Assembly (NCBI GenBank): GCA_019326865.1
Contig: GCA_019326865.1_4101.1
DNA length: 64,000 nucleotides
Source: a phage
Reading direction: 5' to 3' (one strand)
A program made the translations under genes and the position numbers. Under the pieces are notes generated by a model. It searched no databases. It had not been told where the DNA came from and saw only the letters and a program-made list of their open reading frames with translations. Shown here piece after piece: positions 24,133-40,987 of this stretch (positions are counted from its first letter, which is position 1; each line of letters starts with the position of its first letter).

Positions 24133-24133
24133 T

Positions 24134-24319: not shown

Positions 24320-24342
24320 CTAATATACAGACACTAACTAAT
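24307..24342. repeat. perfect 18-bp tandem duplication (atacagacactaactaat x2) spanning stop codon
   Basis: Two identical adjacent 18-mers read directly. Confidence 0.8.
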
Positions 24343-24525: not shown

Positions 24526-24538
24526 TAGAGATAATACT

Positions 24539-25386: not shown

Positions 25387-25414
25387 TTGACATTATGATT
25401 CAGTACTGTATAAT
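25387..25414 (+). promoter_or_regulatory. orphan sigma70-like promoter (TTGACA -16- TATAAT) with no ORF downstream
   Basis: Consensus hexamers; only a ~20-codon ORF follows. Confidence 0.45.
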
Positions 25415-25785
25415 GTTCTACATAGAGAGATGAGTTGCCGCAAACAATTCATTCACTCTACCTCCTGTCGTGAGACAGTACAGAAAAGATAGTTCCTCCT
25501 ATGCGTGGTACATCTTTTTATAACCTCTTTTTTCGTAATATAAACAGTACTGGTATTAACAGAATGGTATCAGTACTGACTTTAATCTAATACATTATGC
25601 CACCAGCACAAGCTGGTGGATTCCCTCTAACAGTATTCAGTACTACATGATAGTCTTCATCCTCCTAGGGTAACATAGTGAGGGCTATTGTGGGAGTACT
25701 GAATACTCCTTTCAAAAGATAGAATAATGGTATAGTACCGACGGATTTTGGGCGTAGTTACCCTGGGTGGATTTTGGACGTAGAT

Positions 25786-25930
25786 ATGTCTAGCCCTCCA
25801 GAAGTCTGGAAGTAAAGATGGCTATCCATCTAGACGGCTAAACGGATAGATTTCTAGATGGCTGTATGGCTAGACGTTTGGATGGCTAAACGGCTAGATG
25901 GTTACACGTCTGGAAGTATAGACGGCTAAA
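25786..25930. repeat. cluster of short direct repeats (ggctaaacgg / ctagatgg / tctggaagta units), iteron-like
   Basis: Repeated 8-12 nt units in noncoding DNA. Confidence 0.5.
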
Positions 25931-26619
25931 TCAAAATTTTTATTTTGTTTTTCCAATAGTTCCCCTACCGCGTGAGGATATTTTTCCCCGCAGTATCTGG
26001 AGTTAGATTTTTCTGAATCTGGAATCATTATCTAATAAACTGGGGGCAATGTCAACCGCCTGGATGAATATTTTTAAAAATAATCTAGTACTGAATTTTG
26101 GGCGTAACTATGCACCCGGTGGGCTTGAGTCTTTCTCGACTTGATGAAACTATTATACAGTACTAGAAAAATAAAGCAATACCCTAAACGCAAAAAATTT
26201 AATTAATTTGCTTGCTATCCTGGGCCGTACTATGGTACTATTAGTTCAGTACTGAGAAAGTGCTTTAACCTGCTAGGGTGCGGGAGTGTATCCTTTTTAA
26301 ATTATATGAATTTTGGACGCAATCCCGCACCCTGTGGGTTAGTGCCTTGTGTCCGGCTTATGTAGTAATTATACGCTTTTTCAGTACTGAGTCAATAGCT
26401 AAAAACAAAAATAATTGAAAATAATTTAACGCGTTTAAACGGCCCGTAAAGCCCTGGAGTGATTGGAATGGTACAAATGTATAGCTTAGGTGTATTAATG
26501 CGTTAGAATGCGTCTGAGGCCGTTTTACGGGGTGTAGTGGTGATTTGGTTGATTCAGTACTGAATGATAGTATTCCTATATAGAAAGAAAACTATTTTAA
26601 AAGTACATGTAGAAAGTAC

Positions 26620-26647
26620 TTGCAAAGTATTGGGAAAGGTGTAGAAT
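26620..26647 (+). promoter_or_regulatory. early-type promoter TTGCAA -16- TAGAAT, followed by leader hairpin gcgggaacacttcccgc
   Basis: Hexamers and spacing read from sequence. Confidence 0.55.
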
Positions 26648-26702
26648 GTTTTACATCGAGAGCGGGAACACTTCCCGCTGCACATAAAGAGAGATTAAAA
26701 CG

Positions 26703-27065
26703 ATGGCTACTCAAATCAATAAAATTATTGCTAACCTGGTTAACTTCCGCGACGAGATGAAAGGTCTTCCGGCTGAAACGGTAAAAATTCACATTTCAGC
26801 TTATCGGGAACTTATTGCAATGTTACCGCTTAAGCGTGAACAATACGCCGCTACCGTGATGCTTGATGCGATGATCCATGAGATGATCGCCAGTGATTTA
26901 ACGATGGTTTATCAGTACATGGGCGAAAATTTCGCGGTGTCTGGTAAGCCAGTACCAGGGATGGCAACTACTGAGGAATTGCACGGTTTAAATTTAAAAC
27001 AAGATGCATGGGATAATATGCCTCGTTTCCTGGTATGGGCTGACAGTGGCAAAATTTACAAATAA
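26703..27065 (+). CDS. hypothetical protein (120 aa)
   Basis: ORF after promoter + leader hairpin; starts ATGGCT. Confidence 0.65.
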   Translation: MATQINKIIANLVNFRDEMKGLPAETVKIHISAYRELIAMLPLKREQYAATVMLDAMIHEMIASDLTMVYQYMGENFAVSGKPVPGMATTEELHGLNLKQDAWDNMPRFLVWADSGKIYK

Positions 27066-27079
27066 GTTTAATAAAGTAC

Positions 27080-27107
27080 TTGCATACTAAGTTAAAACAA
27101 GTATAAT
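27080..27107 (+). promoter_or_regulatory. early-type promoter TTGCAT -16- TATAAT
   Basis: Followed by two leader stem-loops (27127-27146, 27151-27165). Confidence 0.6.
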
Positions 27108-27150
27108 ACTTTCTATCAGGTGCAACGGGAAGTTTTTAAACTTCCCTATA

Positions 27151-27165
27151 GGGGAATAGTTCCCC
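27151..27165 (+). other. 5' leader palindrome ggggaatagttcccc
   Basis: Perfect 6-bp stems; same motif class upstream of >25 genes in 26.6-44.5 kb. Confidence 0.6.
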
Positions 27166-27186
27166 ACTATATAAGAGGATTAAAAA

Positions 27187-27426
27187 ATGGCTAAATCAAA
27201 AATGTTCTTAGGTCACAAAAACAAAACTCATTGGAATGTAAGCCTTTGGATTAATAACGATGAGTCATTGTACCGGTTGGCCCAGGACTTTATTGCCGCC
27301 AACACTAATCGCAATGATGCGGCCCGTCATATGATGTTATTTTTAGAACAGACTGGACAAGATAAAACACCGGACGGATTCAAATATAGCACTACTGCGA
27401 TCCGTGCGGCGATGGTTGGAATGTAA
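27187..27426 (+). CDS. hypothetical protein (79 aa), paralog of 29223 gene
   Basis: Shares HKNKTHWNVSLWINNDESLYR and GFKYSTTAIRAAMVGM with 29223..29462. Confidence 0.7.
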   Translation: MAKSKMFLGHKNKTHWNVSLWINNDESLYRLAQDFIAANTNRNDAARHMMLFLEQTGQDKTPDGFKYSTTAIRAAMVGM

Positions 27427-27511
27427 TAGAATTTATTTAAAGTACTATCGCAAAAAATGATAGTACTTTATAATAGTGTTTTATTCATACACCAACGATA
27501 AGGGCAACAGC

Positions 27512-27778
27512 ATGAATATTAAGTATTTTGCGACGCGTGAACAAGCTCGGAAGGCGGCGAAAGTGGAAGGTGCAACGTTTAAAGATATGGGCATACAATC
27601 GGAACGTGGTAAACGTTGGGCCATTGTAAAGCGTAGTACAGCCAGATCATTACAGTACTGGTTATCAGCTTTAAAAAGTCCTGATAGTGTATCGCGTCGA
27701 GTGGTAGAAATAAAGCTCGACCGTAAGGGGAATCGTGTTACCGTGTACCGTACTAAAAAGATTGCAGTACTTGAATAA
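27512..27778 (+). CDS. hypothetical protein, paralog of 39936 gene
   Basis: Shares KYFATREQAR..FKDMG..RKGNRVTVY; start at MNIKYF. Confidence 0.65.
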   Translation: MNIKYFATREQARKAAKVEGATFKDMGIQSERGKRWAIVKRSTARSLQYWLSALKSPDSVSRRVVEIKLDRKGNRVTVYRTKKIAVLE

Positions 27779-27784
27779 AAGTAC

Positions 27785-27812
27785 TTGCAAAGTAAGTTAA
27801 AAGGCGTATAAT
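27785..27812 (+). promoter_or_regulatory. early-type promoter TTGCAA -16- TATAAT + leader hairpin ggggaatacttcccc
   Basis: Read from sequence. Confidence 0.6.
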
Positions 27813-27862
27813 ACTTTCTATCAGGTGGGGAATACTTCCCCACTACATAAGAGGATTTAAAA

Positions 27863-28093
27863 ATGGCTACCATGTACATGACCGAAGTTAAAACCGTAAA
27901 AGATACTACCACAAATAAAACTACTTACTTACAGCGGATCTGTGGTGTATGGCAACGTATTAGTAAAGTAAAGTACTTTAAATTAACATCATATGCCAAT
28001 CGTTCGGATTCATTCAGTACTGAAATAAAAGGTAATAAAGTACACCAATACGGCACTTATTATTATTATAGCCTGGACGCGATTGCAGTATAA
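27863..28093 (+). CDS. hypothetical protein
   Basis: ORF after promoter cassette. Confidence 0.6.
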   Translation: MATMYMTEVKTVKDTTTNKTTYLQRICGVWQRISKVKYFKLTSYANRSDSFSTEIKGNKVHQYGTYYYYSLDAIAV

Positions 28094-28519
28094 GCAGTTT
28101 ACAAATCTTTACAATTGCCGGTATTGACTTAAAATGTCAGTACTGGCATAATGTATCTATTGAAACGAACAATTTGGCCCACGGGGTGCGGGAGTGTATC
28201 TATAGAAAAAGTAGTTTAGTACAGTTACAATTGTGCACCCGGTGGGTTAGCTGTTGTCATGGGGTATATTATGCCAGTACTTGATAATGCTGTCAATACC
28301 TTTTTACTATTCAGTACTGAAAACTATTTGATAAAAAGTACTTGCAAACTATGTTTAAAGGCGTATAATGTTTTACATCAGGACGGGGAACGAAATAAGT
28401 AACTTCCCGTTAAGTAGCCCAGGAGTAAGGCATACGAAAAACTCCCCTGATAAAATAGTTTGACAATTGTTTTTAAAAGCGTATAATACTTACATCAACT
28501 ACTTAATGAGGGTTACAAA

Positions 28520-29131
28520 ATGAAAACTATCACTACTACTACTTATGTTATGGATTTTTCTGAATTAAACGCAGAACAAAAAACGTCAGCTATCGAACTG
28601 GTTCGGGAACGTGAAAAAAACTTAAACGACGATTATTTTTCTGAAAGTGAAATTGAATACTATAAAGAAACAGTACTACCGGAATATGGCATTAATGAAG
28701 CTGAAATACAATTCAGTGGTTTTTGGTCGCAGGGTGACGGTGCATCAATTAGTACTGACCACGTTGACGCAGTGAAGTTTTTACGTAAGGTAAGAGCATT
28801 AACTAAGTATCGCTCAATCCGTCACCTGCTGAATGAAGATGATTTGGCGATGAGTGTAAAGCGTTCTCACTCCCGCTACTCACATGAGAACACTGTAAGC
28901 GGGTACATTGAATCGGCTTACACTGATTTAACCGCAAAACAAGAAACGTTAGTTAATGGGCTTGAGGAACTGCTCACTGATACTATTCGTGAATTGTCAC
29001 GCAAGTTATACCGTGATTTAGAGAATGCATATGAGGATCAATTCACTACTGAAAACATCGTATCACTGATTGAGGGTAACGAATATCAATTCAATGTTAT
29101 TGATGGCGTAGTAGAATCAATTGCATATTAA
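28520..29131 (+). CDS. hypothetical protein (203 aa)
   Basis: ORF after promoter TTGACA..TATAAT. Confidence 0.65.
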   Translation: MKTITTTTYVMDFSELNAEQKTSAIELVREREKNLNDDYFSESEIEYYKETVLPEYGINEAEIQFSGFWSQGDGASISTDHVDAVKFLRKVRALTKYRSIRHLLNEDDLAMSVKRSHSRYSHENTVSGYIESAYTDLTAKQETLVNGLEELLTDTIRELSRKLYRDLENAYEDQFTTENIVSLIEGNEYQFNVIDGVVESIAY

Positions 29132-29138
29132 AAAGTAC

Positions 29139-29166
29139 TTGCAAACTAAGTTTAAAAGCGTATAAT
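29139..29166 (+). promoter_or_regulatory. early-type promoter TTGCAA -16- TATAAT + leader hairpin gggggaatggttcccc
   Basis: Read from sequence. Confidence 0.6.
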
Positions 29167-29222
29167 ACTTTATATCGAGGCGGGGGAATGGTTCCCCTGC
29201 TCAAACAAACGAGGATTTAAAA

Positions 29223-29462
29223 ATGGCTAGTACTAAAACTTACAACGGACACAAAAACAAAACTCATTGGAATGTTTCATTGTGGATTAATAACGATGAA
29301 TCATTATACCGGATTGCTCAAAATTGCATCGCTCAAAGTAAAACGAAAGATATTGCAGCGGAATTTATGTACCGCAGATTAAAAGCCAACGGTACTACTA
29401 CAACGCCGGACGGATTCAAGTATAGCACTACGGCGATCCGTGCTGCAATGGTTGGAATGTAA
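29223..29462 (+). CDS. hypothetical protein, paralog of 27187 gene
   Basis: High identity to 27187..27426. Confidence 0.7.
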   Translation: MASTKTYNGHKNKTHWNVSLWINNDESLYRIAQNCIAQSKTKDIAAEFMYRRLKANGTTTTPDGFKYSTTAIRAAMVGM

Positions 29463-29518
29463 CATTCAGTACTGAATCAATGGCGGGTGTGGTTCCCGCC
29501 TTTACTGAGGATTATCTA

Positions 29519-29800
29519 ATGAGTAAAGTAATTAACTATACAGTACTAAGCAAGTCATTATCTATTAGCCAGTGCACCGATGGTTTTTGGCTGTACGATG
29601 AAACGCGTGGCATGAATTTAGCTATGCAGGAGAAAACTGCTGATGCGGCATATCTTAAAGCACTGGAATACTACCAGAAGCGTTTAACGGAAGTAGAAAA
29701 CGATTATAATAACCTTAAAGCGAAAGTGGATAATTTCGTTGGTCAATTCGTTGACGATGACGAGGGGCACTACTGCGACCGTTGTGGATCTTACAGTTAA
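29519..29800 (+). CDS. hypothetical protein
   Basis: Start at MSKVINY with SD gagga. Confidence 0.55.
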   Translation: MSKVINYTVLSKSLSISQCTDGFWLYDETRGMNLAMQEKTADAAYLKALEYYQKRLTEVENDYNNLKAKVDNFVGQFVDDDEGHYCDRCGSYS

Positions 29801-29817
29801 GTACTAAGGATTATATA

Positions 29818-30021
29818 ATGAGTGATTTAATTGAACGTATCAAAGAGCTTGAAGAAAAAGAATTGCAGTTGATCGGTTTACAGAATAAAATCTATCATGA
29901 TTTGGGGAGTTTTATCAATGCGTGGGATAATGGCGATCCTGATGCGTTACCTGCTAACCGCCAGGCAATGATCAATGATGTGCGTGGTGTCTTTGAGTAT
30001 GTTTTAAAGCAATTAAATTAA
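29818..30021 (+). CDS. hypothetical protein
   Basis: Start at MSDLIERIK. Confidence 0.55.
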   Translation: MSDLIERIKELEEKELQLIGLQNKIYHDLGSFINAWDNGDPDALPANRQAMINDVRGVFEYVLKQLN

Positions 30022-30031
30022 AAAAAAGTAC

Positions 30032-30059
30032 TTGCAATTAGTTTTTAGTACTGTATAAT
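30032..30059 (+). promoter_or_regulatory. early-type promoter TTGCAA -16- TATAAT + leader hairpin ggggagaaatggttctccc
   Basis: Read from sequence. Confidence 0.6.
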
Positions 30060-30109
30060 GTTTTACATAGAGGGGAGAAATGGTTCTCCCTGGTAATGAG
30101 GAAAATACA

Positions 30110-30331
30110 ATGGCTAATATCACTACTCTTTCTCAACTGGAAGCACTGGTTAAATCTATGCGGGAACATGCCGACAAAATCGGCGTAAAAGATCCAGCCG
30201 TTTGCTTCTGCGACGAAATGAATGATGATACATTGGTAATAGCAGAAGTTCAGGACGTTTCTAACTATTCATCGCGTTACACTGGCGGCGTAGCAAATAA
30301 AGGTGACTTCTGTTTATACCTTACCAAATAA
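30110..30331 (+). CDS. hypothetical protein
   Basis: Start at MANITTL; track start 30080 lies inside leader hairpin. Confidence 0.6.
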   Translation: MANITTLSQLEALVKSMREHADKIGVKDPAVCFCDEMNDDTLVIAEVQDVSNYSSRYTGGVANKGDFCLYLTK

Positions 30332-30574
30332 CAACGCGGGGAGATAATAACTCCCCGTTACTTTTTCAGTACTGAATAATTTAATAGACGGATCTATGCA
30401 CCCAGTGGGTTAGTGACTGTTTCGTCTTTATGTAGTAATTATGCCAGTACTGGATGCACTTGTCAACAACTATTTTTCAAATACTTTTTATTAAAATACT
30501 TGCAATTAGTTTTTAAACGCGTATAATGTTTTGCATAGGGGGAGCGGTTCCCCTGGTAACTAAGGAATAAGAAA

Positions 30575-30811
30575 ATGGTCGAACAAATCAAATCAACGTC
30601 TTCGAATGTAACGGGAACGGTAGCACACTTTACTTGTGATGAATCGCGGGGCGTTCCCTATTGTGCTGTACATGTAAACACTGAGGGTAACTACTGGTTT
30701 ACGGTTTACGGATCATATTCATTTGGACGGCCAGGGCATCAAAAAATTCTGGATAAAGTACAACCAACGGGTAAAAATATCACTGCCGAAATGTTTTATA
30801 AAAACAAATAA
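30575..30811 (+). CDS. hypothetical protein
   Basis: Promoter cassette upstream. Confidence 0.6.
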   Translation: MVEQIKSTSSNVTGTVAHFTCDESRGVPYCAVHVNTEGNYWFTVYGSYSFGRPGHQKILDKVQPTGKNITAEMFYKNK

Positions 30812-30905
30812 AAGTACTTGATAATAGTTTGACTATGTATTACAGTACTGTATAATAGATACATAAGGGGCGAATAGTTTGCCCCTAGTACAAAGGGGAA
30901 ACATT

Positions 30906-31136
30906 ATGCCAGGCCGAATAGTTTTACTTAACGCTGGAAGTACTACACAACTCCTTAACGCCGTGTATTATGATATTGAAACGAGCGTCAATCTTATCAG
31001 TACTGTAGTATTGTTGGACACTGGAAAGGTCGCAAATGATAAAGCGATTGCAGGTATACTAACGGATCTTAAACCAGGTTGCAGTACTCCAATAACTTTA
31101 AATGATAAAGTGTTTAATATTTTACTAACTGATTAA
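30906..31136 (+). CDS. hypothetical protein
   Basis: Start after leader hairpin ggggcgaatagtttgcccc. Confidence 0.55.
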   Translation: MPGRIVLLNAGSTTQLLNAVYYDIETSVNLISTVVLLDTGKVANDKAIAGILTDLKPGCSTPITLNDKVFNILLTD

Positions 31137-31143
31137 GTACATA

Positions 31144-31165
31144 GCCCACCTGGTGGGCTTTTTTG
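31144..31165 (+). terminator. terminator gcccac-ctg-gtgggc + T-run
   Basis: GC stem then tttttt. Confidence 0.6.
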
Positions 31166-31360
31166 TTTTTGTAGTACTGCATACTTTGAAAATAGTTTTA
31201 AAAAAGTAGTTGACATTACCGCAAAAAGGCGTAGAATGTATTACATCAAGACGGGGAGCACTAAGTAGACCGCCAGTAAGTCGAACGAAAAACTGGACAC
31301 GTCGAGAAAACTTTGATACACTAACTAACATAAACTAAACTTTAATTGAGGATTTATAAA

Positions 31361-31843
31361 ATGGCTAATGTAAAATCATTTCTGAAAGCACTGATTTCTA
31401 ACGATACTGCTATTGCTGCTGAATTGCTGGCGGATCTGGATAGCGATACCATGAAAGCGGTACGCAACAATTTTAACATTGCGTACAGTGAAGCTAAAGA
31501 ACTGCAAGCCAAAAAGATAGCAGAACTGGAAGAACAGAAAAAAGCCCGTGAAGAAGAATTACAAGCAACAATTGAAAGTATTCAGGCGGCGGTTGCAGGG
31601 TTGGATCTGGAAGTAGTTATTGAAATGGCACATAAAGCCCTGGCAGTTAAGTACGGTGAAGATAAGCCAGTATCTAAACCTAAAAAATGGATTCAGGAAC
31701 GCGTAACGGTTGTTCTTGATAATGGCGAGGAACATTTAATTCCCGTGCGTGGTAACTGCATTGCGGTAGTTCTGGATGCTATCAAAGAAAGCGGATTGAC
31801 TCGCGAGGAATGGATCGAAGCTCACCGCAAGATTGAAGCATAA
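31361..31843 (+). CDS. hypothetical protein (160 aa), charged/helical
   Basis: Start MANVKSF. Confidence 0.65.
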   Translation: MANVKSFLKALISNDTAIAAELLADLDSDTMKAVRNNFNIAYSEAKELQAKKIAELEEQKKAREEELQATIESIQAAVAGLDLEVVIEMAHKALAVKYGEDKPVSKPKKWIQERVTVVLDNGEEHLIPVRGNCIAVVLDAIKESGLTREEWIEAHRKIEA

Positions 31844-31864
31844 CAATTAAAGTACTGAATCACT

Positions 31865-31892
31865 AGCCCACTTCTTATAGTGGGCTTTTTTG
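31865..31892 (+). terminator. terminator agcccac..gtgggct + T-run
   Basis: Stem-loop then tttttt. Confidence 0.6.
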
Positions 31893-32107
31893 TGTTTATC
31901 GTTTACCAGTCCACTAGCACCGCCTAGAATCGATTCTAACGCATTAAACTGGTCGCCCTAGCTGGTGGCATTAATGCCGTTAGAACGCGATTGAGGACGT
32001 TTAAAGTATTTTTGCAAAAAGTAATAAAAAGTACTTGCACGATTAAGAGATTAGAGTATAATTAATTACATCAAGACAAGACACCTTAACTAACTGAGGA
32101 TATAAAG

Positions 32108-32260
32108 ATGAATACTTATGAACTGGATTGTTTTACTTTACAAGTAATGTCAGTATGCAGTAAAAAAGATTGGTCATCAAAGGAATTTAAAGCAGTTATT
32201 GCGTGTGCAAAACACGGCAAGACTATCAATGAAACGGCATCAATCATTGATAAACTTTAA
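32108..32260 (+). CDS. hypothetical small protein (50 aa)
   Basis: Short ORF after promoter, SD gagga. Confidence 0.4.
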   Translation: MNTYELDCFTLQVMSVCSKKDWSSKEFKAVIACAKHGKTINETASIIDKL

Positions 32261-32331
32261 AAAATAGTTTGACAATAGTTTTAAGTACTGCGATAATACA
32301 TACATCAACTACTGAATAGGAATAAAAAACA

Positions 32332-32559
32332 ATGGCTATCGTAATCACTCGCGTAACTGGTACTACTGGCACTGCTTCAAATGTTGCTGTAATTACTAAT
32401 AAGAAAGGTGCAGAATTACATTTTGCAATGGATAAATGGGCCGTTAATGAGTTTGGTCAGTGGGCAAGTGTAGCATACATTGAAACCTATCAAGTGCCAT
32501 CGATTAGCTTAACTGATTTAGGTGTAGAACGTATCCTTTGCCTGGATGAATTAAATTAA
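32332..32559 (+). CDS. hypothetical protein
   Basis: Starts ATGGCT after promoter. Confidence 0.6.
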   Translation: MAIVITRVTGTTGTASNVAVITNKKGAELHFAMDKWAVNEFGQWASVAYIETYQVPSISLTDLGVERILCLDELN

Positions 32560-32645
32560 AAAAGTACTTGCAAAGTAAATCGAATAAAGTATAATACATT
32601 ACATCAAGGGGAGAAAATGGTTCTCCCCACTAAGAGGAAACTAAT

Positions 32646-32789
32646 ATGAAAACTTGTCAATGTGGTAAAAAATCTATTACTGGTTTGAAACGGGGCGTTG
32701 CACTTTGCCAGTACCATTATAATTTACAAGTATGGGGTAAAGAATGGGCCGATCAGGTGGAAGCAATAAAGAAAGCAAAAAGTAAGTAA
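32646..32789 (+). CDS. hypothetical small Cys-containing protein (47 aa)
   Basis: Short ORF after promoter + hairpin. Confidence 0.4.
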   Translation: MKTCQCGKKSITGLKRGVALCQYHYNLQVWGKEWADQVEAIKKAKSK

Positions 32790-32869
32790 AAAATATTATC
32801 ACAGTACTATTGACATAGATTGATAGTACTGGCATAATAGATTTTATTAAAACAACTGAGGAAATTAAA

Positions 32870-33082
32870 ATGGCTATCATTACTAAAATCAAAGTAAACA
32901 AAACACTGGTTAAGCTGGAACAAGTGAAAGAAGGTTATAAAGTATCTTGGTGCGGTATGTATCGGACGTTCGCAGATGTAGACGATGCAATCAATTACTA
33001 CACTGACACGGTTAAAAACTTTGTTCGTGCTGATGTGGTTATGGCAGTGGCAACATATAAAGCATCAAAAGAAAGTAAGTAA
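32870..33082 (+). CDS. hypothetical protein, paralog of 35824 gene
   Basis: Identical promoter block upstream; N-terminus MAII. Confidence 0.6.
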   Translation: MAIITKIKVNKTLVKLEQVKEGYKVSWCGMYRTFADVDDAINYYTDTVKNFVRADVVMAVATYKASKESK

Positions 33083-33164
33083 AAATATTATCACAGTACT
33101 ATTGACATAGATTGATAGTACTGGCATAATAGATTTTATCAAGACAACTAAGAGGAAATTAAAA

Positions 33165-33509
33165 ATGGCTAACATCAATACTATAGCAGCACAAAATATC
33201 AACCTGTCTTCTGTTGAAGTTGTACACATTGCCGCCCGGCGTTGGTTCCAGGCGTCTTATGGTAATACGTATTTCTCTTTAACGGTAGATGTTGAAATCA
33301 ATGGCGAATTTATTGAAGTAGTAAACGTGCCGTTCCAATATGGCTACGGGGATCATTTTGACACTGTAGCAATGGAAGAATTTAGCAAGGTTATTAATAT
33401 GGAAGGTAAAGAGTTTTTACGCGGTTCTTATCTTTCCCGTTTTTGCCGTGATAATAATATCACTGTTTATAGTTCTGTTAGTGATGTTAAACGCAAAAAA
33501 GATCTTTAA
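33165..33509 (+). CDS. hypothetical protein, paralog of 39526 gene (C-terminal VKRKKD)
   Basis: Shared C-terminal motif. Confidence 0.6.
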   Translation: MANINTIAAQNINLSSVEVVHIAARRWFQASYGNTYFSLTVDVEINGEFIEVVNVPFQYGYGDHFDTVAMEEFSKVINMEGKEFLRGSYLSRFCRDNNITVYSSVSDVKRKKDL

Positions 33510-33589
33510 TTAGCTTTACTTTATGCAGATACTTTGATATAGTGTCTGCATAGGGGAAAGAAATTAAATCAACTTAAGAGGATAGTAAA

Positions 33590-33859
33590 ATGAAAAATAT
33601 CAGTACTTTAATCGATGCAGGTACACATGTTCGTCGGTCTATGGTTGCAACCAGTTCTACAAAACAAGTAGCGAGCGGTTATCTTGTATTTGTGCACGAT
33701 GGAAAACTCCTGGAACGTTCAATCAATTTTGATGTTAAAAACAATTGCCGTTTTATTATCTTTCGCCGTGAACAATACAAGATCGACATTCCAGCAAAGC
33801 CCATTAGCGGGGCGTACAACGTGCAATCATTGTTTGAGCGTCAACCATACACCTATTAA
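33590..33859 (+). CDS. hypothetical protein
   Basis: ORF with SD gagga. Confidence 0.55.
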   Translation: MKNISTLIDAGTHVRRSMVATSSTKQVASGYLVFVHDGKLLERSINFDVKNNCRFIIFRREQYKIDIPAKPISGAYNVQSLFERQPYTY

Positions 33860-33910
33860 TCAAAACATCGTTAGCGGTCGATTTAGGCCGCTTATACTGG
33901 GGATTATATA

Positions 33911-34183
33911 ATGAATACTAATCAAGTACTGAATGAGATTGAAAGCATCATTAAACCGATGAAGCGTACTGATGCAATGTTAACACCGGAAGAATGCCGC
34001 CTATATGAGCGTTATAGCGTCGAACAAGTCCAGGAAATGGCTATGGCTATCCCTGCCGTTCAACAGCCTGAGAATGCGTCACAGGACGTTACAGGGGATT
34101 ATAACATCAATCCAGTACTAGGGAAGATTACACCAATTACCGAAGAAGAAAAAGACTACTTAAGCCAGTACTTAAAAGGTTAA
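33911..34183 (+). CDS. hypothetical protein
   Basis: ORF. Confidence 0.55.
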   Translation: MNTNQVLNEIESIIKPMKRTDAMLTPEECRLYERYSVEQVQEMAMAIPAVQQPENASQDVTGDYNINPVLGKITPITEEEKDYLSQYLKG

Positions 34184-34188
34184 TTAAT

Positions 34189-34398
34189 ATGCTTACTGTA
34201 CAGGATAAGATCGACATCTTAAAGGTTAATATGTATGTGATTGATGCAGATCCTGAAAAAGTATTTGCATACGATGATTCTAATCGTAGTCCTTTTTATT
34301 GTAGTCATGTAGTTGGATATGTGCCGTTATCGTATGTTATCGAAAGAGTGGTTGATTCAGCATACAAACATTTTTTAGAAAATAGTACTTGCAATTAG
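34189..34398 (+). CDS. hypothetical protein
   Basis: ORF. Confidence 0.5.
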   Translation: MLTVQDKIDILKVNMYVIDADPEKVFAYDDSNRSPFYCSHVVGYVPLSYVIERVVDSAYKHFLENSTCN

Positions 34399-34466
34399 TT
34401 TTTAGTACTGTATAATGTTTTACATGAAGGGGGGAAATGATTCTCCCCAATAACAGGAGAAACAAA

Positions 34467-34619
34467 ATGAAACAATACAACGCTCGGTTTGATGTTACTA
34501 TCGGCAACGGCAAAGGTCAATTCTCTTTCAGTGCTCGTAAGAGTTATACAGAAAACTTCTTGCGTAATTGTGCACTGACCGCCGCACAAATTAAACATTA
34601 TTTTCAGGCTAAAAAATGA
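34467..34619 (+). CDS. hypothetical small protein (50 aa)
   Basis: Start after leader hairpin, SD aggag. Confidence 0.45.
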   Translation: MKQYNARFDVTIGNGKGQFSFSARKSYTENFLRNCALTAAQIKHYFQAKK

Positions 34620-34850
34620 AATCATTAGCTTATTATAGCTCGGCCCTGGTCGGTGCATTGATCGCGGCATTGTTAGTAGCTTATCTATTCTTTATGGTGA
34701 TTTAAATGAATCCTAACGGTATAATTTACAGTACTCCTAAAACTAAAGCAGATAAAGCGGAAGCACGTAAAGCGAAAGTAAAGGAGTACATCAAGCAAGG
34801 TATGACACGAAAGGCGGCGATTCTAAAAGCTAAAAATAAATGAAAAAAAG

Positions 34851-34940
34851 TGGTTGACTTCGGTCAGCCATTTTGCTATTATATATTCATTGAGAGATAG
34901 CTCACTAGCCCACAGGGTGCGGGAGTGTATCTATTATATA
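34851..34940 (+). repeat. ~90-bp repeat element copy 1 (hairpin ggttgacttcggtcagcc + ...tagcccacagggtgcgggagtgtatc...)
   Basis: Near-identical copies at 38578, 41587, 43870. Confidence 0.75.
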
Positions 34941-35065
34941 AGTATTGAGTACTGAAAACTATTTTAAAAGTACATGTATAAAGTACTTGCAAACTATCTC
35001 AATTGGCGTATAATGTTTTACATCGAGAGGGGAAACGGTTTCCCCTAGTAATAAGGAATAAAATC

Positions 35066-35407
35066 ATGACTATTGCAATTGTACAATCTAACTTTGAAAA
35101 TGAAATCATCGCCCAAGCACTGCGTTTAAATGATGGTCGGGCCGAAATTAATTACGGTTTCAATTCAGGCGGTTGTGAAAAATATCAGTACTTTATAACT
35201 GCTGATGGCGGTGTCCTGGGTATTAATACAGTTATTGTAAACATTCAGAAAATTAATTTCAATGATCCAGACGATAGCCAGTTTTACATTGTAGGCGTAG
35301 ACGTGAACTATGAGGATGACTCACTAACTGATGATTACACTGGCGAGAAGTTAGAAAGTGCATACGGTGAAGATGATTATCAGTCAGTACCGGAAGATTT
35401 TGAATAA
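35066..35407 (+). CDS. hypothetical acidic protein
   Basis: Start at MTIAIVQ after leader hairpin. Confidence 0.55.
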   Translation: MTIAIVQSNFENEIIAQALRLNDGRAEINYGFNSGGCEKYQYFITADGGVLGINTVIVNIQKINFNDPDDSQFYIVGVDVNYEDDSLTDDYTGEKLESAYGEDDYQSVPEDFE

Positions 35408-35531
35408 TATTAAAAAATAGTTTGACAATAGATTATAGTACTGTATAATAGTTTACATCAAGGGCGACGGGAAGTTTTAAAAACTTCCCTATAGGGAGAA
35501 TAGTTCTCCCCACTAACAGAGAGAAAACAAA

Positions 35532-35744
35532 ATGGCTAATATCTGCACTGTACTGAAAAATGCAAAACAAGTTTTATTTTCTGATCACGATCATTTAAAC
35601 AAGGATATTACTGGCGTTCGGAATATCAAAGATGTAAAACGTGTTATGGGTATCTATTGCAATATGAAACGTGTCGGCACGTTCGGTAATAAATTTCTAT
35701 ACCAGGCGGGGGATTACAATTTTACACTGACTATCATTAACTAA
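35532..35744 (+). CDS. hypothetical protein
   Basis: Promoter with two leader stem-loops upstream. Confidence 0.6.
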   Translation: MANICTVLKNAKQVLFSDHDHLNKDITGVRNIKDVKRVMGIYCNMKRVGTFGNKFLYQAGDYNFTLTIIN

Positions 35745-35823
35745 AAATATTATCACAGTACTATTGACATAGATTGATAGTACTGGCATAATAGATTTTA
35801 TTAAAACAACTGAGGAAATTAAA

Positions 35824-36003
35824 ATGGCTATCATCGCAAAAACTGAAATCATCGGCCTGGATTCTATCATCATGACGTTTGAAGATCAAAAAGGTATGTA
35901 TGTAGTTTCCTATGGTGATTATGTTCGGGAGTATGAAACGGTAGACGAAGCCTTTGAAAGTTACATTCGCCAGGTGAATAAAGCATACGACGATTACCGC
36001 TAA
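35824..36003 (+). CDS. hypothetical protein (59 aa), paralog of 32870 gene
   Basis: Same promoter block as 32790-32869. Confidence 0.5.
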   Translation: MAIIAKTEIIGLDSIIMTFEDQKGMYVVSYGDYVREYETVDEAFESYIRQVNKAYDDYR

Positions 36004-36104
36004 AATATATTACCAGTACTATCAAAGCTATTGACAACGTTTGATAGTACTGTATAATAAGTTTTATCAACTGTAGTTAACTTAACAAAAGAGAGAGAAA
36101 CAAA

Positions 36105-36248
36105 ATGATCGCACTGGATTCATTCATCGATGCAGTTCTGGCAAAAACTGGCGAGGATCTGACCGCAGAACAATACGCGATGATCGAGCAATGCCAGCAA
36201 GACGGTAAATCGGTGAAAGATACTGTTAAGATTATCCGCAAGATGTAA
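36105..36248 (+). CDS. hypothetical small protein (47 aa)
   Basis: After promoter with AGTACTATCAA inverted repeat around TTGACA. Confidence 0.4.
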   Translation: MIALDSFIDAVLAKTGEDLTAEQYAMIEQCQQDGKSVKDTVKIIRKM

Positions 36249-36354
36249 GATTATAAGCCCATTAGTTAACGCTGGTGGGCTTTAATCATTTACCCTATAC
36301 AATGCCAGTACTAAACCGTTTATCTCGTTAGAATGCATTACAGGACGTTTAACA

Positions 36355-36552
36355 ATGATTAGCATGAAATCAGTACAAAAACAAATAGAAACATTATCAA
36401 AAATTAAACGTAAACAGTACTCATTAGAATATAATATCAATGGTAACTATCATCTAATGAAAGAGAATAATTTTATCGTCATTGATGAATCATTGCAAAT
36501 TATTAGTATAGTACTGAAAGCATTAATTAATGATAGAAAAAGGTTAAAATAA
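36355..36552 (+). CDS. hypothetical protein
   Basis: ORF. Confidence 0.45.
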   Translation: MISMKSVQKQIETLSKIKRKQYSLEYNINGNYHLMKENNFIVIDESLQIISIVLKALINDRKRLK

Positions 36553-36809
36553 TGGCAGTAGGATTCGCGAAAGATGGAGCCGAGCAAGATGAGATTAACG
36601 CAGTTATTCAAGCCGCCGTTAACCACGCTAGAAAGCAAATTAACGCACAAATAGAATCACTGATACATTGCCTCGACTGCGGCGATAAAATCCCTGAGAA
36701 TCGCCGACAGGCTGTTAAGGGATGTAAGTACTGCATAACCTGCCAGGAAGATCATGATAGTACTTTTAAACGAGATCCGCGTAATTGTTGGCATAGATCT
36801 ATGAGATAA
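36552..36809 (+). CDS. TraR/DksA-like C4 zinc-finger protein
   Basis: C-x2-C-x13-C-x2-C-x2-C with IPENRR motif. Confidence 0.55.
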   Translation: MAVGFAKDGAEQDEINAVIQAAVNHARKQINAQIESLIHCLDCGDKIPENRRQAVKGCKYCITCQEDHDSTFKRDPRNCWHRSMR

Positions 36810-36873
36810 AAAGTAATTGACAGTACTGAAAGATAGTGTATAATGTTTTATATCTTAACTGAGGATAGAAATC

Positions 36874-37230
36874 ATGGGAATACAACATATCACGCTGACC
36901 ACTGACAATGGCGAGATCACTGGTTATCAAGTACAGGGCAAAGTAGCACAATTGCAGTACTGGTTTGTTAAACGTGGAATCATTGCACCGGATCTTGATT
37001 ATGACCGTGTAGCGTTTATTGATTCTCTTTATGTTGATCCTGAAAGTCGGGGCAATGGTGAAGGTAACGAATTAATGAATGCCTTTATTGATGCCGCCGA
37101 TGATTCAGATTGTATCATTTTAGAATGCGATACGGGAGAAGATAACGCCTTCAATCTTAAAGAATGGTATGAAGGTTTCGGATTCGAAGTACTGATCGAT
37201 AGTGAATATCCTATCATGATTTTATCATAG
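36874..37230 (+). CDS. hypothetical acidic protein
   Basis: ORF with SD gagga. Confidence 0.6.
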   Translation: MGIQHITLTTDNGEITGYQVQGKVAQLQYWFVKRGIIAPDLDYDRVAFIDSLYVDPESRGNGEGNELMNAFIDAADDSDCIILECDTGEDNAFNLKEWYEGFGFEVLIDSEYPIMILS

Positions 37231-37319
37231 TACTAAAAAAGTAATTGACAGTACTATCAGATAGTATATAATGTTTTACATAGAGGGGAAACATCTTCCC
37301 CTACTAAGAGGAAAGAAAA

Positions 37320-37508
37320 ATGGAAAACTTATCAAGTATTTTAGTACAAGATGATTTTGGTAATCCTGGAAGTGCTATCATTGTTCGGGGTAATAAAGCA
37401 ACGTTTGTTATTGCTGGTGGACCTGTACAGCGTAGCATTAAAAACAATGCTGTTACTATTAATAATGTACGCTATCGCTTAGATAAAGAATTGATTCATA
37501 AACTGTAA
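37320..37508 (+). CDS. hypothetical protein
   Basis: After promoter + hairpin ggggaaacatcttcccc. Confidence 0.55.
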   Translation: MENLSSILVQDDFGNPGSAIIVRGNKATFVIAGGPVQRSIKNNAVTINNVRYRLDKELIHKL

Positions 37509-37535
37509 TATTAATTTAATAGAGGATAACAATAA

Positions 37536-37859
37536 ATGTACATTCATACTACTATCACAAAGGAAGTCCGTTGCCAGTTCGAAAGTATTCCGGGCGTATG
37601 TTTCATCACTGGTACGTTTTCCCCTGGTGATCGTGATAATCCAGTACTGTTACAGTTACGCCATCCATTATGGGATAAAGCATTTGATCTACCGTTGAAT
37701 GAATTCGCAACTACTGCTGAAAAGTACATTAAAAATATTCGCGAGAATGATCGACTATTCATTAATGCTTTTAGTGATTCCGCGTTAAGCGAGATCCACG
37801 GCGTATTGGTTGCAATCATGGAATCAATGGAGAAAACTAAATTCAAACAAGGTGAATAA
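37536..37859 (+). CDS. hypothetical protein
   Basis: ORF with SD gagga. Confidence 0.6.
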   Translation: MYIHTTITKEVRCQFESIPGVCFITGTFSPGDRDNPVLLQLRHPLWDKAFDLPLNEFATTAEKYIKNIRENDRLFINAFSDSALSEIHGVLVAIMESMEKTKFKQGE

Positions 37860-37943
37860 AAACTATTGACAATGTAATCTAGTACTGTATAATAAGTTAC
37901 ATGAAGGGGAGAAATGATTCTCCCTACTAAGAGGAAAGAAAAA

Positions 37944-38156
37944 ATGCAAGGTCAACTAATCGTTCGTAAATGGTCTGATACTAATGAAAAACCGTGGGAT
38001 GTACAATACATCGGACCGGATGGGGTATCACGTTATCAGCCTGGCGTAACGCATAGTACTGAGCAATATGCCGCCGCTCATCGTGAACGCCTGTTAGAAT
38101 CTATGCAACAGGGTTTAGGTGAAAAATTCATTCAAGATCATTGGCTGAAAGATTAA
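37944..38156 (+). CDS. hypothetical protein
   Basis: Start after leader hairpin ggggagaaatgattctccc. Confidence 0.55.
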   Translation: MQGQLIVRKWSDTNEKPWDVQYIGPDGVSRYQPGVTHSTEQYAAAHRERLLESMQQGLGEKFIQDHWLKD

Positions 38157-38242
38157 AAAGTACTTGTGTAGTATAGAAAATAAAGTATAATGTTTAATAC
38201 AGGAAGGGGAATAGTTCCCCTCCTAACAAAAAGGAAAGTAAC

Positions 38243-38416
38243 ATGATTCATGTAGAATTGTCAGTACTGAGAGATTTGTTTTATCGGATGGGTACTACTG
38301 GCGAATATCCGAAGGGTGATACTGCAAAACTTTTTGTATCTCTCGACTTATGGCAACGCGAACAATTAGTAATGTCGTGGCGTAAAGGTAAAGCAGATCG
38401 CGAGGTGAAAGCATGA
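38243..38416 (+). CDS. hypothetical small protein (57 aa)
   Basis: After promoter + hairpin. Confidence 0.45.
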   Translation: MIHVELSVLRDLFYRMGTTGEYPKGDTAKLFVSLDLWQREQLVMSWRKGKADREVKA

Positions 38417-38562
38417 AAGAATTTTTATTCGAAGTAGTTTTTATTGGTGTAAGTAGTCACCAATTGATTCGCTCAAGTGGTTACAATGTTTGCCAGGCAT
38501 GGAATAACATTAAACAAATGTACCCGAACGCTATCACATATCGCAACCCAAAACAAGTTTAA
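38413..38562 (+). CDS. hypothetical small protein (49 aa)
   Basis: ATGA-coupled to upstream ORF. Confidence 0.35.
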   Translation: MKEFLFEVVFIGVSSHQLIRSSGYNVCQAWNNIKQMYPNAITYRNPKQV

Positions 38563-38577
38563 AAATAATTAAAAAAA

Positions 38578-38667
38578 GGATTGACTTCGGTCAGTCCTTT
38601 TTGCTATTATATATTCATTGAGAGATAGCTCACTAGCCCACAGGGTGCGGGAGTGTATCTATTATAT
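38578..38667 (+). repeat. ~90-bp repeat element copy 2
   Basis: Matches 34851 copy. Confidence 0.75.
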
Positions 38668-38894
38668 GTTGGTGGGTGTATTATCTAGTACTGAAAACTA
38701 TTTGATAAAAAGTACTTGCATTGTACTTAGAATCAAGTATAATGTTTTACATCAGGACAGGGAACGAAATAAGTAACTTCCCGTTAAGTAGCCCAGGAGT
38801 AAGGCATACGAAAAACTCCCCTGATAAAATAGTTTGACAATAGTTTTAAGTACTGATAAAATAATCACATCAACTACTGATAAGGAAACATAAA

Positions 38895-39170
38895 ATGCGG
38901 GTTCTTCTGACAGCTAACGAAATCGAGCAAGTACTTACTACTAACCTGGAACAATGGAAACGTGAAGCAGATATCCAGGCGGTTCAATTGTTAAATGAGA
39001 AGTTAACGCCGGATGATTTAAGTAAGATTGTAGATCCTCAATTCTACGAAGATATTCACGACACCGCGTTAAGCGTCGAGGATGTACTAGATAAACACTA
39101 CATTGATACTAATTTACAGGGTTACGGTCGTAAAAATTTTATTACTATTCACGACATTTACAATAATTAA
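38895..39170 (+). CDS. hypothetical protein
   Basis: ORF after promoter. Confidence 0.6.
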   Translation: MRVLLTANEIEQVLTTNLEQWKREADIQAVQLLNEKLTPDDLSKIVDPQFYEDIHDTALSVEDVLDKHYIDTNLQGYGRKNFITIHDIYNN

Positions 39171-39256
39171 GTATTGACAAAGTATCTTAGTACTGTATAA
39201 TAGTTTACATCAAGTGAGGGGAATGGTTCCCCTCCTAACAAAGAGAGAAATAAAAA

Positions 39257-39439
39257 ATGGCTAAGTGCACTATCTGTAAGAAAGAAATAGTATTAGTTCC
39301 AAGTGCCCGTGAGCGTGCAGCTCGGTTCGGTGGCAAAGCGTCAGACTATACAAAAATGTTTACTACTCATGCAAATTGCCAGGTAGCAAAACGTTCACAA
39401 GAAAGCGTAGAATTAATGCGTAAACTTTCCAAAAAATAA
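39257..39439 (+). CDS. hypothetical small Cys-containing protein
   Basis: Promoter block duplicated at 39440-39525. Confidence 0.55.
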   Translation: MAKCTICKKEIVLVPSARERAARFGGKASDYTKMFTTHANCQVAKRSQESVELMRKLSKK

Positions 39440-39525
39440 GTATTGACAAAGTATCTTAGTACTGTATAATAGATTACATCAAGTGAGGGGAAACGGTTCC
39501 CCTCCTAACAAAGAGAGAAATAAAA

Positions 39526-39849
39526 ATGACTATGATCCTTGCCCAGAAAGTAGAACTGAAAATTGTAACTTCCTTTGACATTAAAGTTAATCGCTGGACT
39601 GATCGGAACGGTAATACTTACCACTCTTGCTACGTGTCTGCATTGATTGGTGATCGTTGGGAAGACTTGGGACACGAAACCTTTACATACGGTTACGGTA
39701 CGCAAGGCGAATACACTGGTTTGGAGATCATTAAAGAAACCGTTATAGGTTTCAACCCGAAAGAAAAAGTTATTCACCGCATCGAAAAAGAGATTAATAA
39801 AGAAATAACAGTTCGCTACTACGATGTAAAACGTAAGAAAGACATGTAA
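39526..39849 (+). CDS. hypothetical protein, paralog of 33165 gene
   Basis: Shared C-terminal VKRKKD motif. Confidence 0.6.
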   Translation: MTMILAQKVELKIVTSFDIKVNRWTDRNGNTYHSCYVSALIGDRWEDLGHETFTYGYGTQGEYTGLEIIKETVIGFNPKEKVIHRIEKEINKEITVRYYDVKRKKDM

Positions 39850-39935
39850 TAGAATCCATTTAAAGTACTATTTGACATTACACAGATAGTACTTTATAAT
39901 AGACTCTAACTTGTAGTATTAACTTAACTAATAGG

Positions 39936-40340
39936 ATGTATACCATGATTACTAAATTCTACGCTACCCGTGAAGCTGCCCGTATTGTTGCACGCGAGGA
40001 AGGAGCGGCATTTAAAGACATGGGCAAAGATGCACCGAAAGGCCAACGCTGGAGCGTACAGTTCAAAGAAATCTCTGATATTGTGAATTCACCTGAACCA
40101 GTACTGACAGCAGCAGAACAGAAGAAAGCTGATGAACTGGCGGCAATTCTTAACGCTCAAGATGAATTCGTCGAGGGTGCTGATATCCAGGTTGTAGTAA
40201 ATTCGAATGCATGGACTCACGCGGATCATCTGGCTAACCTGAAGCGTCCAAGCGTATTGATTCGCAACCATAAAGAGATCCGACACGACCGCAAGGGCAA
40301 CCGTGTTACTGTATACAGTAAACGCCGCCAGGTTATCTAA
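39936..40340 (+). CDS. hypothetical protein, paralog of 27512 gene
   Basis: Shared KFYATREAAR..FKDMG..RKGNRVTVY; alternative start 39945. Confidence 0.6.
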   Translation: MYTMITKFYATREAARIVAREEGAAFKDMGKDAPKGQRWSVQFKEISDIVNSPEPVLTAAEQKKADELAAILNAQDEFVEGADIQVVVNSNAWTHADHLANLKRPSVLIRNHKEIRHDRKGNRVTVYSKRRQVI

Positions 40341-40362
40341 TACCTAGCAGTACTAACAACAC

Positions 40363-40387
40363 GGCGGGATCTGTTCCCGCCTTTTTT
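40363..40387 (+). terminator. terminator ggcggga-tctg-ttcccgcc + T-run
   Basis: GC stem then tttttt. Confidence 0.65.
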
Positions 40388-40402
40388 ACAGGATAAACTA
40401 AA

Positions 40403-40657: not shown

Positions 40658-40711
40658 CAGTACTCAAATGTTTTAGTACTATATATCTATACCAACACGG
40701 AGAGAAACAAA

Positions 40712-40930: not shown

Positions 40931-40987
40931 TTGACAGTACTCAAATGTTTTAGTACTATATCTATACCAACACAGGAAAAAAACAAA

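Follow-up and report, generated by a model that had tools for sequence, protein, structure and literature searches.

The palindromic hexamer AGTACT occurs 227 times in a 64,000-nucleotide stretch of phage DNA (contig GCA_019326865.1_4101.1, referred to below as the window), where dinucleotide-preserving shuffles of the whole 64 kb gave an expectation of 20.3 +/- 4.3 copies and a maximum of 31. Purifying selection preserves the hexamer over exactly its own 6 bp, and copies of it occupy discrete registers at predicted early promoters. The explanation that we favour, to which we give somewhat less than an even chance, is a composite one: a symmetric factor specific to this phage clade would read AGTACT both in early promoters, where the word would be an operator, and along the whole genome, where it would be a density mark. 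Best supported in this proposal is the existence of a reader; we infer that it is probably a protein, of phage origin and with a repressive effect.

The window matches the 121Q/PBECO4-like jumbo coliphages (Asteriusvirus), with 90-96% identity by megablast to CMSTMSU, ph0011, UE-S1, 121Q and others. It runs from the end of a block of larger genes through five paralogous minus-strand genes into a long array of small plus-strand genes, most of which, between 21 and 46 kb, have a predicted sigma70-type promoter of their own. The 350-kb genome of a related phage, EC22.5-2 (L001-L007), was assembled as a full-genome comparator, and is 90.2% identical to the window across 51.6 kb.

Abundance and conservation of the hexamer

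AGTACT is the most frequent of all hexamers in the window (35% GC), where every other palindromic hexamer stays at or below 1.9 times its expectation. The sequence-only reading of this DNA had described the word as conspicuously frequent, which these counts bear out, and the 227 copies also exceed the Markov expectations of order 3 (93) and order 4 (190), both of them inflated because AGTACT dominates its own sub-words. This higher-order null was set aside as circular, and dinucleotide shuffles together with a synonymous-codon shuffle were used in its place. In EC22.5-2, AGTACT is again the top-ranked hexamer, with 913 copies against 101 expected and at least four of them in nearly all 5-kb bins, and its one-mismatch variants reach 1.3-2.2 times expectation, never above 2.2. 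An artefact of repeats or duplications as the cause of the excess is ruled out by the uniform density found in unique structural genes of EC22.5-2 and RaK2.

Comparison of the window with EC22.5-2 revealed that an aligned AGTACT site is intact in 92% of cases and any hexamer in 63%, and that identity per base rises from about 91% in the flanks to 97-99% within the six bases. The same excess of intact sites is seen in coding DNA (90%, with 59% expected), at promoters (90% versus 57%) and in other intergenic DNA (97% versus 56%). Third codon positions are 96.5% identical inside coding AGTACT sites and 83.9% elsewhere (Fisher p = 3e-8), and a synonymous-codon shuffle within 371 confident genes left 172 +/- 10 coding sites where 598 are observed, so that an artefact of codon or amino-acid usage is excluded. 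Moreover, Ser-Thr dipeptides number 604 against 434 expected (the reverse order, Thr-Ser, 430) and are spelled AGT-ACT in 320 cases against 97 expected, and Val-Leu dipeptides are likewise in excess, indicating that selection on the DNA word extends into protein sequence. Between genera the positions themselves are rarely kept, since only 14 of 83 RaK2 sites and 7 of 41 GAP32 sites (17%) have a site at the homologous nucleotide in EC22.5-2, with about 0.15 by chance, and the densities are similar (2.2 and 1.8 per kb); what is selected is therefore mainly the density, and positions turn over.

Outside the six bases, information content around the aligned sites falls to background level, apart from flank preferences with two-fold symmetry, namely C at -1 and G at +1, and T at -3/-4 and A at +3/+4, a pattern to be expected if a dimer binds duplex DNA. 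The form CAGTACTG accounts for 47 of the 227 sites in the window. Close pairs, no more than 40 bp apart, number 41 in the window, and roughly 10 of them have complementary arms of at least 9 bp; the remainder owe their likeness to inverted repeats solely to the self-complementarity of AGTACT. The functional unit is thus the hexamer, and not an inverted repeat bracketing the -35 element, which the sequence-only reading had called operator-like.

Among other phages the excess is confined to part of those compared. AGTACT ranks first among hexamers in RaK2 (117 observed and 12.3 expected in the structural-gene region), GAP32 (253 and 13.8 in the early region) and CBB (27 and 2.8), and shows no such excess in PA5oct (2 and 7.5), Atu_ph07 (1 and 1.4), XacN1 (0 observed), T4 (7 and 9.4) or 50 kb of Escherichia coli K-12 (3 and 4.8). 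In sites per kb, the phage DNA studied here is about 40 times richer than the only host DNA that was sampled. A triple-site scan of IMG/VR returned further high-density Rak2-like contigs and otherwise only tandem repeats and giant-virus contigs; one 278-kb contig turned out to be a repeat artefact.

Along the EC22.5-2 genome the density descends from about 7 per kb in the early region to about 2.8 at 70-150 kb and about 1.6 at 165-300 kb. Outside the early region, intergenic and coding DNA are alike (2.28 and 2.22 per kb), and the profile near start and stop codons is flat except for a dip at the ribosome-binding site. Spacing is slightly more even than random, with a coefficient of variation of 0.87, a largest gap of 2.1 kb and a single gap above 2 kb where 7.3 were expected. 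The early region has a 3-4 fold extra density, and there AGTACT is independent of the reading frame. The window also contains two islands of tightly packed small genes that are poor in the hexamer (Table 1), both of which are poor in EC22.5-2 as well. The island at 52-60 kb is kept across Asteriusvirus genomes and has no match in other phage genera, and a recent horizontal transfer as the origin of the islands finds no support, the 52-60 kb island matching Asteriusvirus genomes only.

Two further regions of the window may be mentioned here. On the minus strand, 14944-21172 holds five tandem paralogous genes of 369-449 aa, labelled in relatives as RCC1-like 'regulator of chromosome condensation' repeat proteins, and the short spacers between them often hold an AGTACT. 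At 25270-26700 there is a stretch of 1.4 kb without an open reading frame (ORF), with 12 AGTACT sites, two strong promoters and, at 25829-25900, three copies of the 24-nt tandem repeat TCTAGATGGCTAAACGGCTAGATG. Scans of the window for tRNAs and Rfam families, this stretch included, found nothing; it could be an origin-like region or one of non-coding RNA.

Early promoters and their registers

In the window, 60 plus-strand sigma70-like promoters were predicted against 12.8 in shuffles, and 32 promoters, 19 of the 25 best among them, have an AGTACT between -45 and 0 relative to the -10 hexamer. An independent scan found eleven perfect 12/12 TTGACA-N16/17-TATAAT promoters in 26-46 kb, each ahead of a small ORF, ten of which have an AGTACT in the spacer. 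With the register counted from the start of the -10 hexamer to the start of the site, the commonest class lies at -7 or -8, with 21 cases of the form AGTACTG-TATAAT or AGTACTGn-CATAAT, followed by -27 (7 cases, with the site fused to the -35, AGTACTTGCAA), -30 (4 cases), -38 (3 cases) and -17 (3 cases, TTGACAGTACT); from the -10 hexamer to +30 of the predicted promoters there are no sites at all. Paired sites are mostly 20-24 bp apart, and 31 bp apart in two promoters. The association with promoters that the sequence-only reading had put forward therefore stands for the early region, where density reaches 17.2 per kb in predicted promoter zones against 2.4 in coding DNA and 0.3 by chance, and fails as a general description, with more than 80% of the sites lying elsewhere.

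The same layout is found in GAP32, which belongs to another genus and has diverged promoters. There it reads aaaAGTACTtgcaa-N-AGTACTtTATAAT with unrelated intervening sequence, registers of -27 to -29 and -7, and sites 20-22 bp apart. In the window, a site at register -8 gives a correctly placed extended -10 TG (AGTACTGnCATAAT), and at register -7 the TG is out of register. In GAP32, the -10-proximal site is AGTACTtTATAAT or AGTACTaTATAAT, the following base is T or A and there is no TG, which argues that AGTACT does not simply supply the extended -10 element. No tie to late (TATAAATA) or TGAAACG-type promoters was found, few instances of these motifs having been recovered.

The starting point of the sequence-only reading was the stretch 32790-32869, which reads ...atcacAGTACTatTGACAtagattgatAGTACTggCATAATag... 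and holds the element cAGTACTatTGACAtagattgatAGTACTg at 32802-32831. It had described AGTACT-based inverted repeats around the -35 of several promoters, and the sequences and copies are as it gave them, save that the copy at 27441 has no TTGACA between its arms. In the example at 32803, the -35 TTGACA lies between the arms at 32810-32815 and the RNA is predicted to fold into a hairpin of -13 kcal/mol (z = -4.8); at 36015-36051, the distal AGTACT adjoins TATAAT and the hairpin reaches -16 kcal/mol. All seven promoters with extended arms align as one homologous family, AGTACTAT...GATAGTACT, and at 32782, 33074 and 35736 promoter and leader, about 100 nt, are nearly the same; the seven therefore amount to one or two independent events. 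Their RNA is predicted to fold into hairpins with energies from -13 to -16 kcal/mol and z from -4.8 to -7.9, which lack a U-tract; for the dual-site promoter at 30027, which has no extended arms, the predicted fold is no more stable than that of shuffled sequence (z = -0.45). With the seven reduced to one cassette family and most close pairs lacking arms of at least 9 bp, the bracketing repeat is not supported as the operator unit.

Table 1. AGTACT sites, promoters and AGTACT-poor islands in the window.
Feature	Position	Strand	Remarks
AGTACT copies, 227	1..64000		preferred context CAGTACTG, outer flanks A/T-rich; ~6 per kb at 21-46 kb
AGTACT pair taken as example by the sequence-only reading	32803..32830		AGTACT at 32803 and 32825, 22 bp apart; arms cAGTACTAT / ATAGTACTg
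Predicted sigma70-type promoter TTGACA-17-CATAAT, extended -10 TG	32810..32838	+	predicted to drive 70-aa ORF starting at 32870
Cassette copy	33095..33122		AGTACT at 33095/33117
Cassette copy	35757..35784		AGTACT at 35757/35779
Diverged cassette copy	43239..43266		AGTACT at 43239/43261; -10 is TATGAT
Family member AGTACTATCAAa...tTTGATAGTACT	36015..36051		13-bp arms cAGTACTATCAAa / tTTGATAGTACTg flank TTGACA
Family member	39864..39893		11-bp arms flank TTGACA; upstream of 131-aa ORF at 39945
Family member	27441..27467		12-bp arms, no -35 / TTGACA between; distal AGTACT adjoins TATAAT
Dual-site promoter AGTACTTGCAAttagtttttAGTACTGTATAAT	30027..30059	+	sites 20 bp apart, fused to -35 and to -10; second copy 34384-34416
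Register -27 promoter, AGTACT on upstream edge of -35, AGTACTTGCAA-N16-TATAAT	29134..29166	+	promoter scan
Register -7 promoter, consensus TTGACA-16-TATAAT	39174..39201	+	AGTACT 39189-39194 fills spacer beside -10
Register -17 promoter TTGACAGTACT	36817..36844	+	AGTACT overlaps final base of -35
AGTACT-poor island	46100..50000		1 site; tightly packed small genes, lower GC
AGTACT-poor island	52000..60000		5 sites, roughly chance level; tightly packed small genes, lower GC

Other structured elements accompany the promoters of the window. Terminator/promoter hybrids have their -35 hexamers at 1349, 5862, 9258, 10542, 34854, 38581, 41591 and 43875; in them, an intrinsic-terminator hairpin (e.g. 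GGGTTGACTTTAGTCAGCCC, -18.7 kcal/mol) holds the -35 TTGAC in its stem, the T-run forms the spacer ahead of CTATAAT or CTATTAT, and AGTACT occurs in none. They look like a subclass of the promoter early stem-loop (PeSL) cassettes, with the stem-loop over the -35. Conserved leader hairpins, GGGGAAnnnnTTCCCC or CGGGAAG...CTTCCCG, lie in the 5' untranslated regions of most early genes at 26.6-44.6 kb, downstream of the -10 and ahead of the ribosome-binding site (for instance at 26655-26680, 27125-27165 and 35460-35510), and may be elements of RNA stability, processing or translational control.

A reader for AGTACT and the rival explanations

In the explanation that we favour, AGTACT would be recognised on double-stranded DNA by a sequence-specific factor of two-fold symmetry, for which a homodimeric DNA-binding protein encoded by the phage clade itself is the likeliest candidate. 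It is the combination of an exact palindrome, symmetric flanks, a 6-base footprint, independence of the reading frame in the early region and clade specificity that points to a symmetric reader of duplex DNA. At early promoters, where paired sites are typically separated by two helical turns, the factor would meet one or two sites joined to the -35, the -10 or both, within the stretch from roughly -42 to -14. Since this is the region contacted by sigma70, a bound factor would compete with the sigma70 holoenzyme and exclude the polymerase, and, the promoters being close to consensus, it would most economically serve to shut off or damp early transcription. Early transcription would thus most likely be shut off or throttled, with activation or recruitment of the polymerase as the alternative. 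Evenly spread and selected for density, the sites elsewhere suggest an additive, genome-wide role for the putative reader: about 900 further sites, roughly one per 450 bp and selected for density rather than position, would load the factor preferentially onto phage DNA, which is plausible because the host sample has about 40 times fewer sites per kb. The operator-like character and the dimeric regulator advanced by the sequence-only reading are consistent with the sites within the RNA polymerase footprint, with the symmetric flanks and with the registers of GAP32, although a binding protein was not found.

The last point is one of several that weigh against this explanation. Among 39 ORFs, comprising the larger ones of the window and those conserved across genera, in a genome of about 550 genes, Pfam and PHROGs gave no helix-turn-helix, ribbon-helix-helix, methyltransferase or nuclease match relevant to AGTACT. 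The basic 131-aa ORF at 39945-40340, which lies behind an inverted-repeat promoter and has a basic C-terminal beta-hairpin, belongs to no Pfam family, and its structural model (predicted local distance difference test score of 70) has no fold match in the PDB. The genes and promoters of the window are heuristic predictions, and the comparators other than EC22.5-2 are stretches of 12-50 kb. Promoter families being in part duplicated cassettes, the registers within one genome are not fully independent, an inflation mitigated because the comparison with GAP32 shows the same registers. Moreover, 185 of the 227 sites in the window fall outside the predicted promoter zones, and with about 80% of the sites there, and nearly all of them elsewhere, away from promoters, a promoter operator alone cannot explain AGTACT. 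A site of 6 bp (or 8 bp) is short for a classical repressor operator, and a pure repressor needs no such number as 900 sites inside genes. Finally, the early promoters fire before any phage protein exists, so that a positive role would need a host or virion-borne factor.

As to the genes themselves, the sole matches among the 39 ORFs were a GmrSD_N/DUF262 domain, that is, a type IV restriction-like N-terminal domain, in a 401-aa protein at 6948-8150 (E = 1e-17), the pyrimidine-dimer DNA glycosylase endonuclease V at 9316-9831, a weak match to a kinase, and a ParE-like toxin domain in an 84-aa early protein at 40403-40657 (E = 6e-11). The N-terminal 40 residues of the 131-aa ORF are very strongly conserved (MITKFYATREAARIVAREEGxxFKDMGKDAPKGxRWAV) and its homologues occur on many metagenomic contigs, all of them unannotated, whereas the 89-aa ORF at 33590 has just 6 homologues.

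A bolder form of the proposal, which we regard as possible and rather doubtful, holds that AGTACT is a sequence-encoded label of 'self' in a clade of jumbo phages whose DNA is chemically ordinary. Its roughly 900 copies would be read to tell phage from host DNA and the early-promoter copies would double as an off switch. Such discrimination would serve transcription takeover, protection, repair or compaction without base modification or a phage nucleus.

Other explanations have to be weighed against a dedicated reader. The seven inverted-repeat promoters (32803, 33095, 35757, 43239, 36015, 39864 and 27441) might be PeSL-type cassettes, an early promoter plus a stem-loop, in which the hairpin attenuates upstream read-through, the repeat is a recombination site that shuffles small genes, and AGTACT is merely a building block of the stem. 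Their descent as one family, three of them with nearly the same promoter and leader, and their stable hairpins agree with this, as do the unambiguous terminator/promoter hybrids in the window and the published sigma70 promoters with stem-loops over the -35 or in the -35/-10 spacer within hyperplastic regions of small ORFans (PMC2839356). The stems here are nevertheless A/T-rich and have no U-tract after them, unlike the GGGG...CCCC stems of PeSLs, most AGTACT promoters lack extended arms, as the unstructured promoter at 30027 illustrates, and neither single sites nor the genome-wide motif are accounted for. We consider it unlikely, if by no means negligible, that this is what the seven promoters are, and it is compatible with a symmetric reader and does not exclude one. 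A second possibility is that of an epigenetic mark, in which AGTACT would be modified by a methyltransferase or another DNA-modifying enzyme of phage or host. The state of promoter sites, full on the injected genome and hemi- or unmodified after replication, would then time early transcription, and sites all over the genome would serve strand discrimination, repair or self-marking, as with Dam and GATC. In its strict 6-bp palindrome, its symmetric flanks and a selective footprint sharply limited to 6 bp, AGTACT has the features typical of sites for type II enzymes, the even spacing with almost no gaps above 2 kb is what a distance-limited MutH-like system would need, and these phages encode several methyltransferases (PMC11895373; PMC3622015; GAP32_068). 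Being a modification target does not by itself explain an enrichment of about 9-fold, however, and the RaK2 paper reports methylation at a CpG-containing site and Dam/Dcm-type resistance, not AGTACT (PMC3622015). The larger ORFs of the window held no methyltransferase in the Pfam/PHROGs scan, and no mismatch-repair genes were identified, so that we rate this explanation as quite improbable.

The reader might also be a DNA-binding protein of the Enterobacterales host, exploited by the phage clade, for example by titrating or activating the nucleoid-occlusion factor SlmA, or another nucleoid protein. Such a factor would already be present when the early promoters fire, the enriched phages all infect Enterobacterales while their non-enriched relatives infect Pseudomonas, Agrobacterium and Xanthomonas, and the SlmA site GTGAGTACTCAC contains the AGTACT core (PMC3020112). 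SlmA, however, needs G1, T2, A4 and G5 and tolerates central changes (PMC3020112), and EC22.5-2 has 0 copies of GTRAGTACTYAC and 4 of GAGTACTC against 202 of CAGTACTG; with its core matching and its essential flanks absent, SlmA was rejected as the reader. T4, with the same host and a similar GC content, is not enriched. No E. coli factor is known to us that has CAGTACTG as its site, and a host reader in general has, in our view, only a slim chance of being correct. It is still harder to believe in a non-adaptive drive, in which a bias of repair or gene conversion, like that of very-short-patch repair, turns near-cognate words into AGTACT and so mimics conservation. Enrichment irrespective of coding status, and of reading frame in the early region, would fit, and so would the mild enrichment of near-cognate words. 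Against it stand the discrete promoter registers kept across genera, the extra density of the early region, the AGTACT-free islands that persist in the same genomes and the excess of Ser-Thr and Val-Leu dipeptides. The excess of CCWGG under very-short-patch repair in E. coli is roughly 1.3-2 fold, far below the 9-fold excess of AGTACT. Very improbable as well is that AGTACT is an intrinsic promoter element, an extended -10 or extended -35 touched by the host RNA polymerase itself with no additional factor. The sites do adjoin both promoter hexamers, and register -8 places the TG of AGTACTGnCATAAT correctly. Yet the TG is out of register at -7, the -10-proximal sites of GAP32 have none, more than 80% of the sites are conserved away from promoters, and the early promoters of T4, served by the same polymerase, lack AGTACT.

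Relation to known systems and significance

AGTACT is akin both to promoter operators and to selected genome-wide words. As in phage repressor operators, palindromic sites lie inside the polymerase footprint of early promoters, often paired on the same face of the helix, although AGTACT covers only 6-8 bp and has hundreds of copies outside promoters. In T4, early promoters are shut off by AsiA, which blocks recognition of the -35 through its binding to sigma and not through a DNA site, so that the likeness is functional only and lies in the expected shut-off of early transcription. Chi, DNA uptake sequences, KOPS and the GATC of SeqA and MutH are over-represented words read all over a genome by dedicated proteins. 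Like these, AGTACT is a short exact word far above expectation, held in coding DNA through codon choice, selected for density while positions turn over, and able to mark one genome from others; it differs in being palindromic and hence without orientation, in being viral, and in occurring at fixed promoter registers too. AGTACT is also the site of ScaI/Eco255I-type restriction-modification systems, an identical 6-bp palindrome of exactly the width of the selective footprint. Phages normally avoid restriction sites, whereas here the site is enriched about 9-fold, and no gene for a cognate enzyme was identified among the 39 window ORFs scanned.

The PeSL cassettes, described in the T4-type phages RB49 and phi1 (Arbiol et al. 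2010, PMC2839356), resemble the early region of the window in the dense array of small ORFans, each with a strong sigma70-like promoter, an A/T-rich upstream region and a stem-loop that can overlap the -35 or sit in the spacer, and in the duplication and shuffling of cassettes. The terminator/promoter hybrids and the GGGG..CCCC-type leader hairpins of the window add to this likeness. PeSLs are nonetheless defined by a G/C-rich stem and no fixed hexamer, AGTACT being absent from their description, whereas in the present case the majority of promoter sites are without a stem and AGTACT is found throughout a 350-kb genome, genes included. The SlmA-binding sequence of E. coli, GTGAGTACTCAC, with the consensus GT(R)AG(Y)/(R)CT(Y)AC (Tonthat et al. 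2011, PMC3020112), shares the central AGTACT, the palindromic form and the Enterobacterales host clade; the essential G1 and T2 are missing in the phage, which prefers C and G beside the core and has 0 full sites in 350 kb. Full-text literature searches found no paper that ties AGTACT to these phages, a mention in the GAP32 paper being what these searches cannot exclude. The genome papers of CBB, RaK2 and Sharanji describe RpoD-like promoters or methyltransferases and do not mention AGTACT.

Jumbo phages of the Rak2/121Q type are under study for use in therapy, and no function is known for over 80% of their genes. In this regard, AGTACT offers an experimental handle on how transcription is controlled with the host polymerase and on how such a phage may tell its own unmodified DNA apart. 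The hexamer can be used as bait for its factor, it predicts which promoters are co-regulated, and it provides a signature of the clade in metagenomes. If it is true that a reader marks phage DNA as self by means of this word, it would be a new principle of phage genome organisation.

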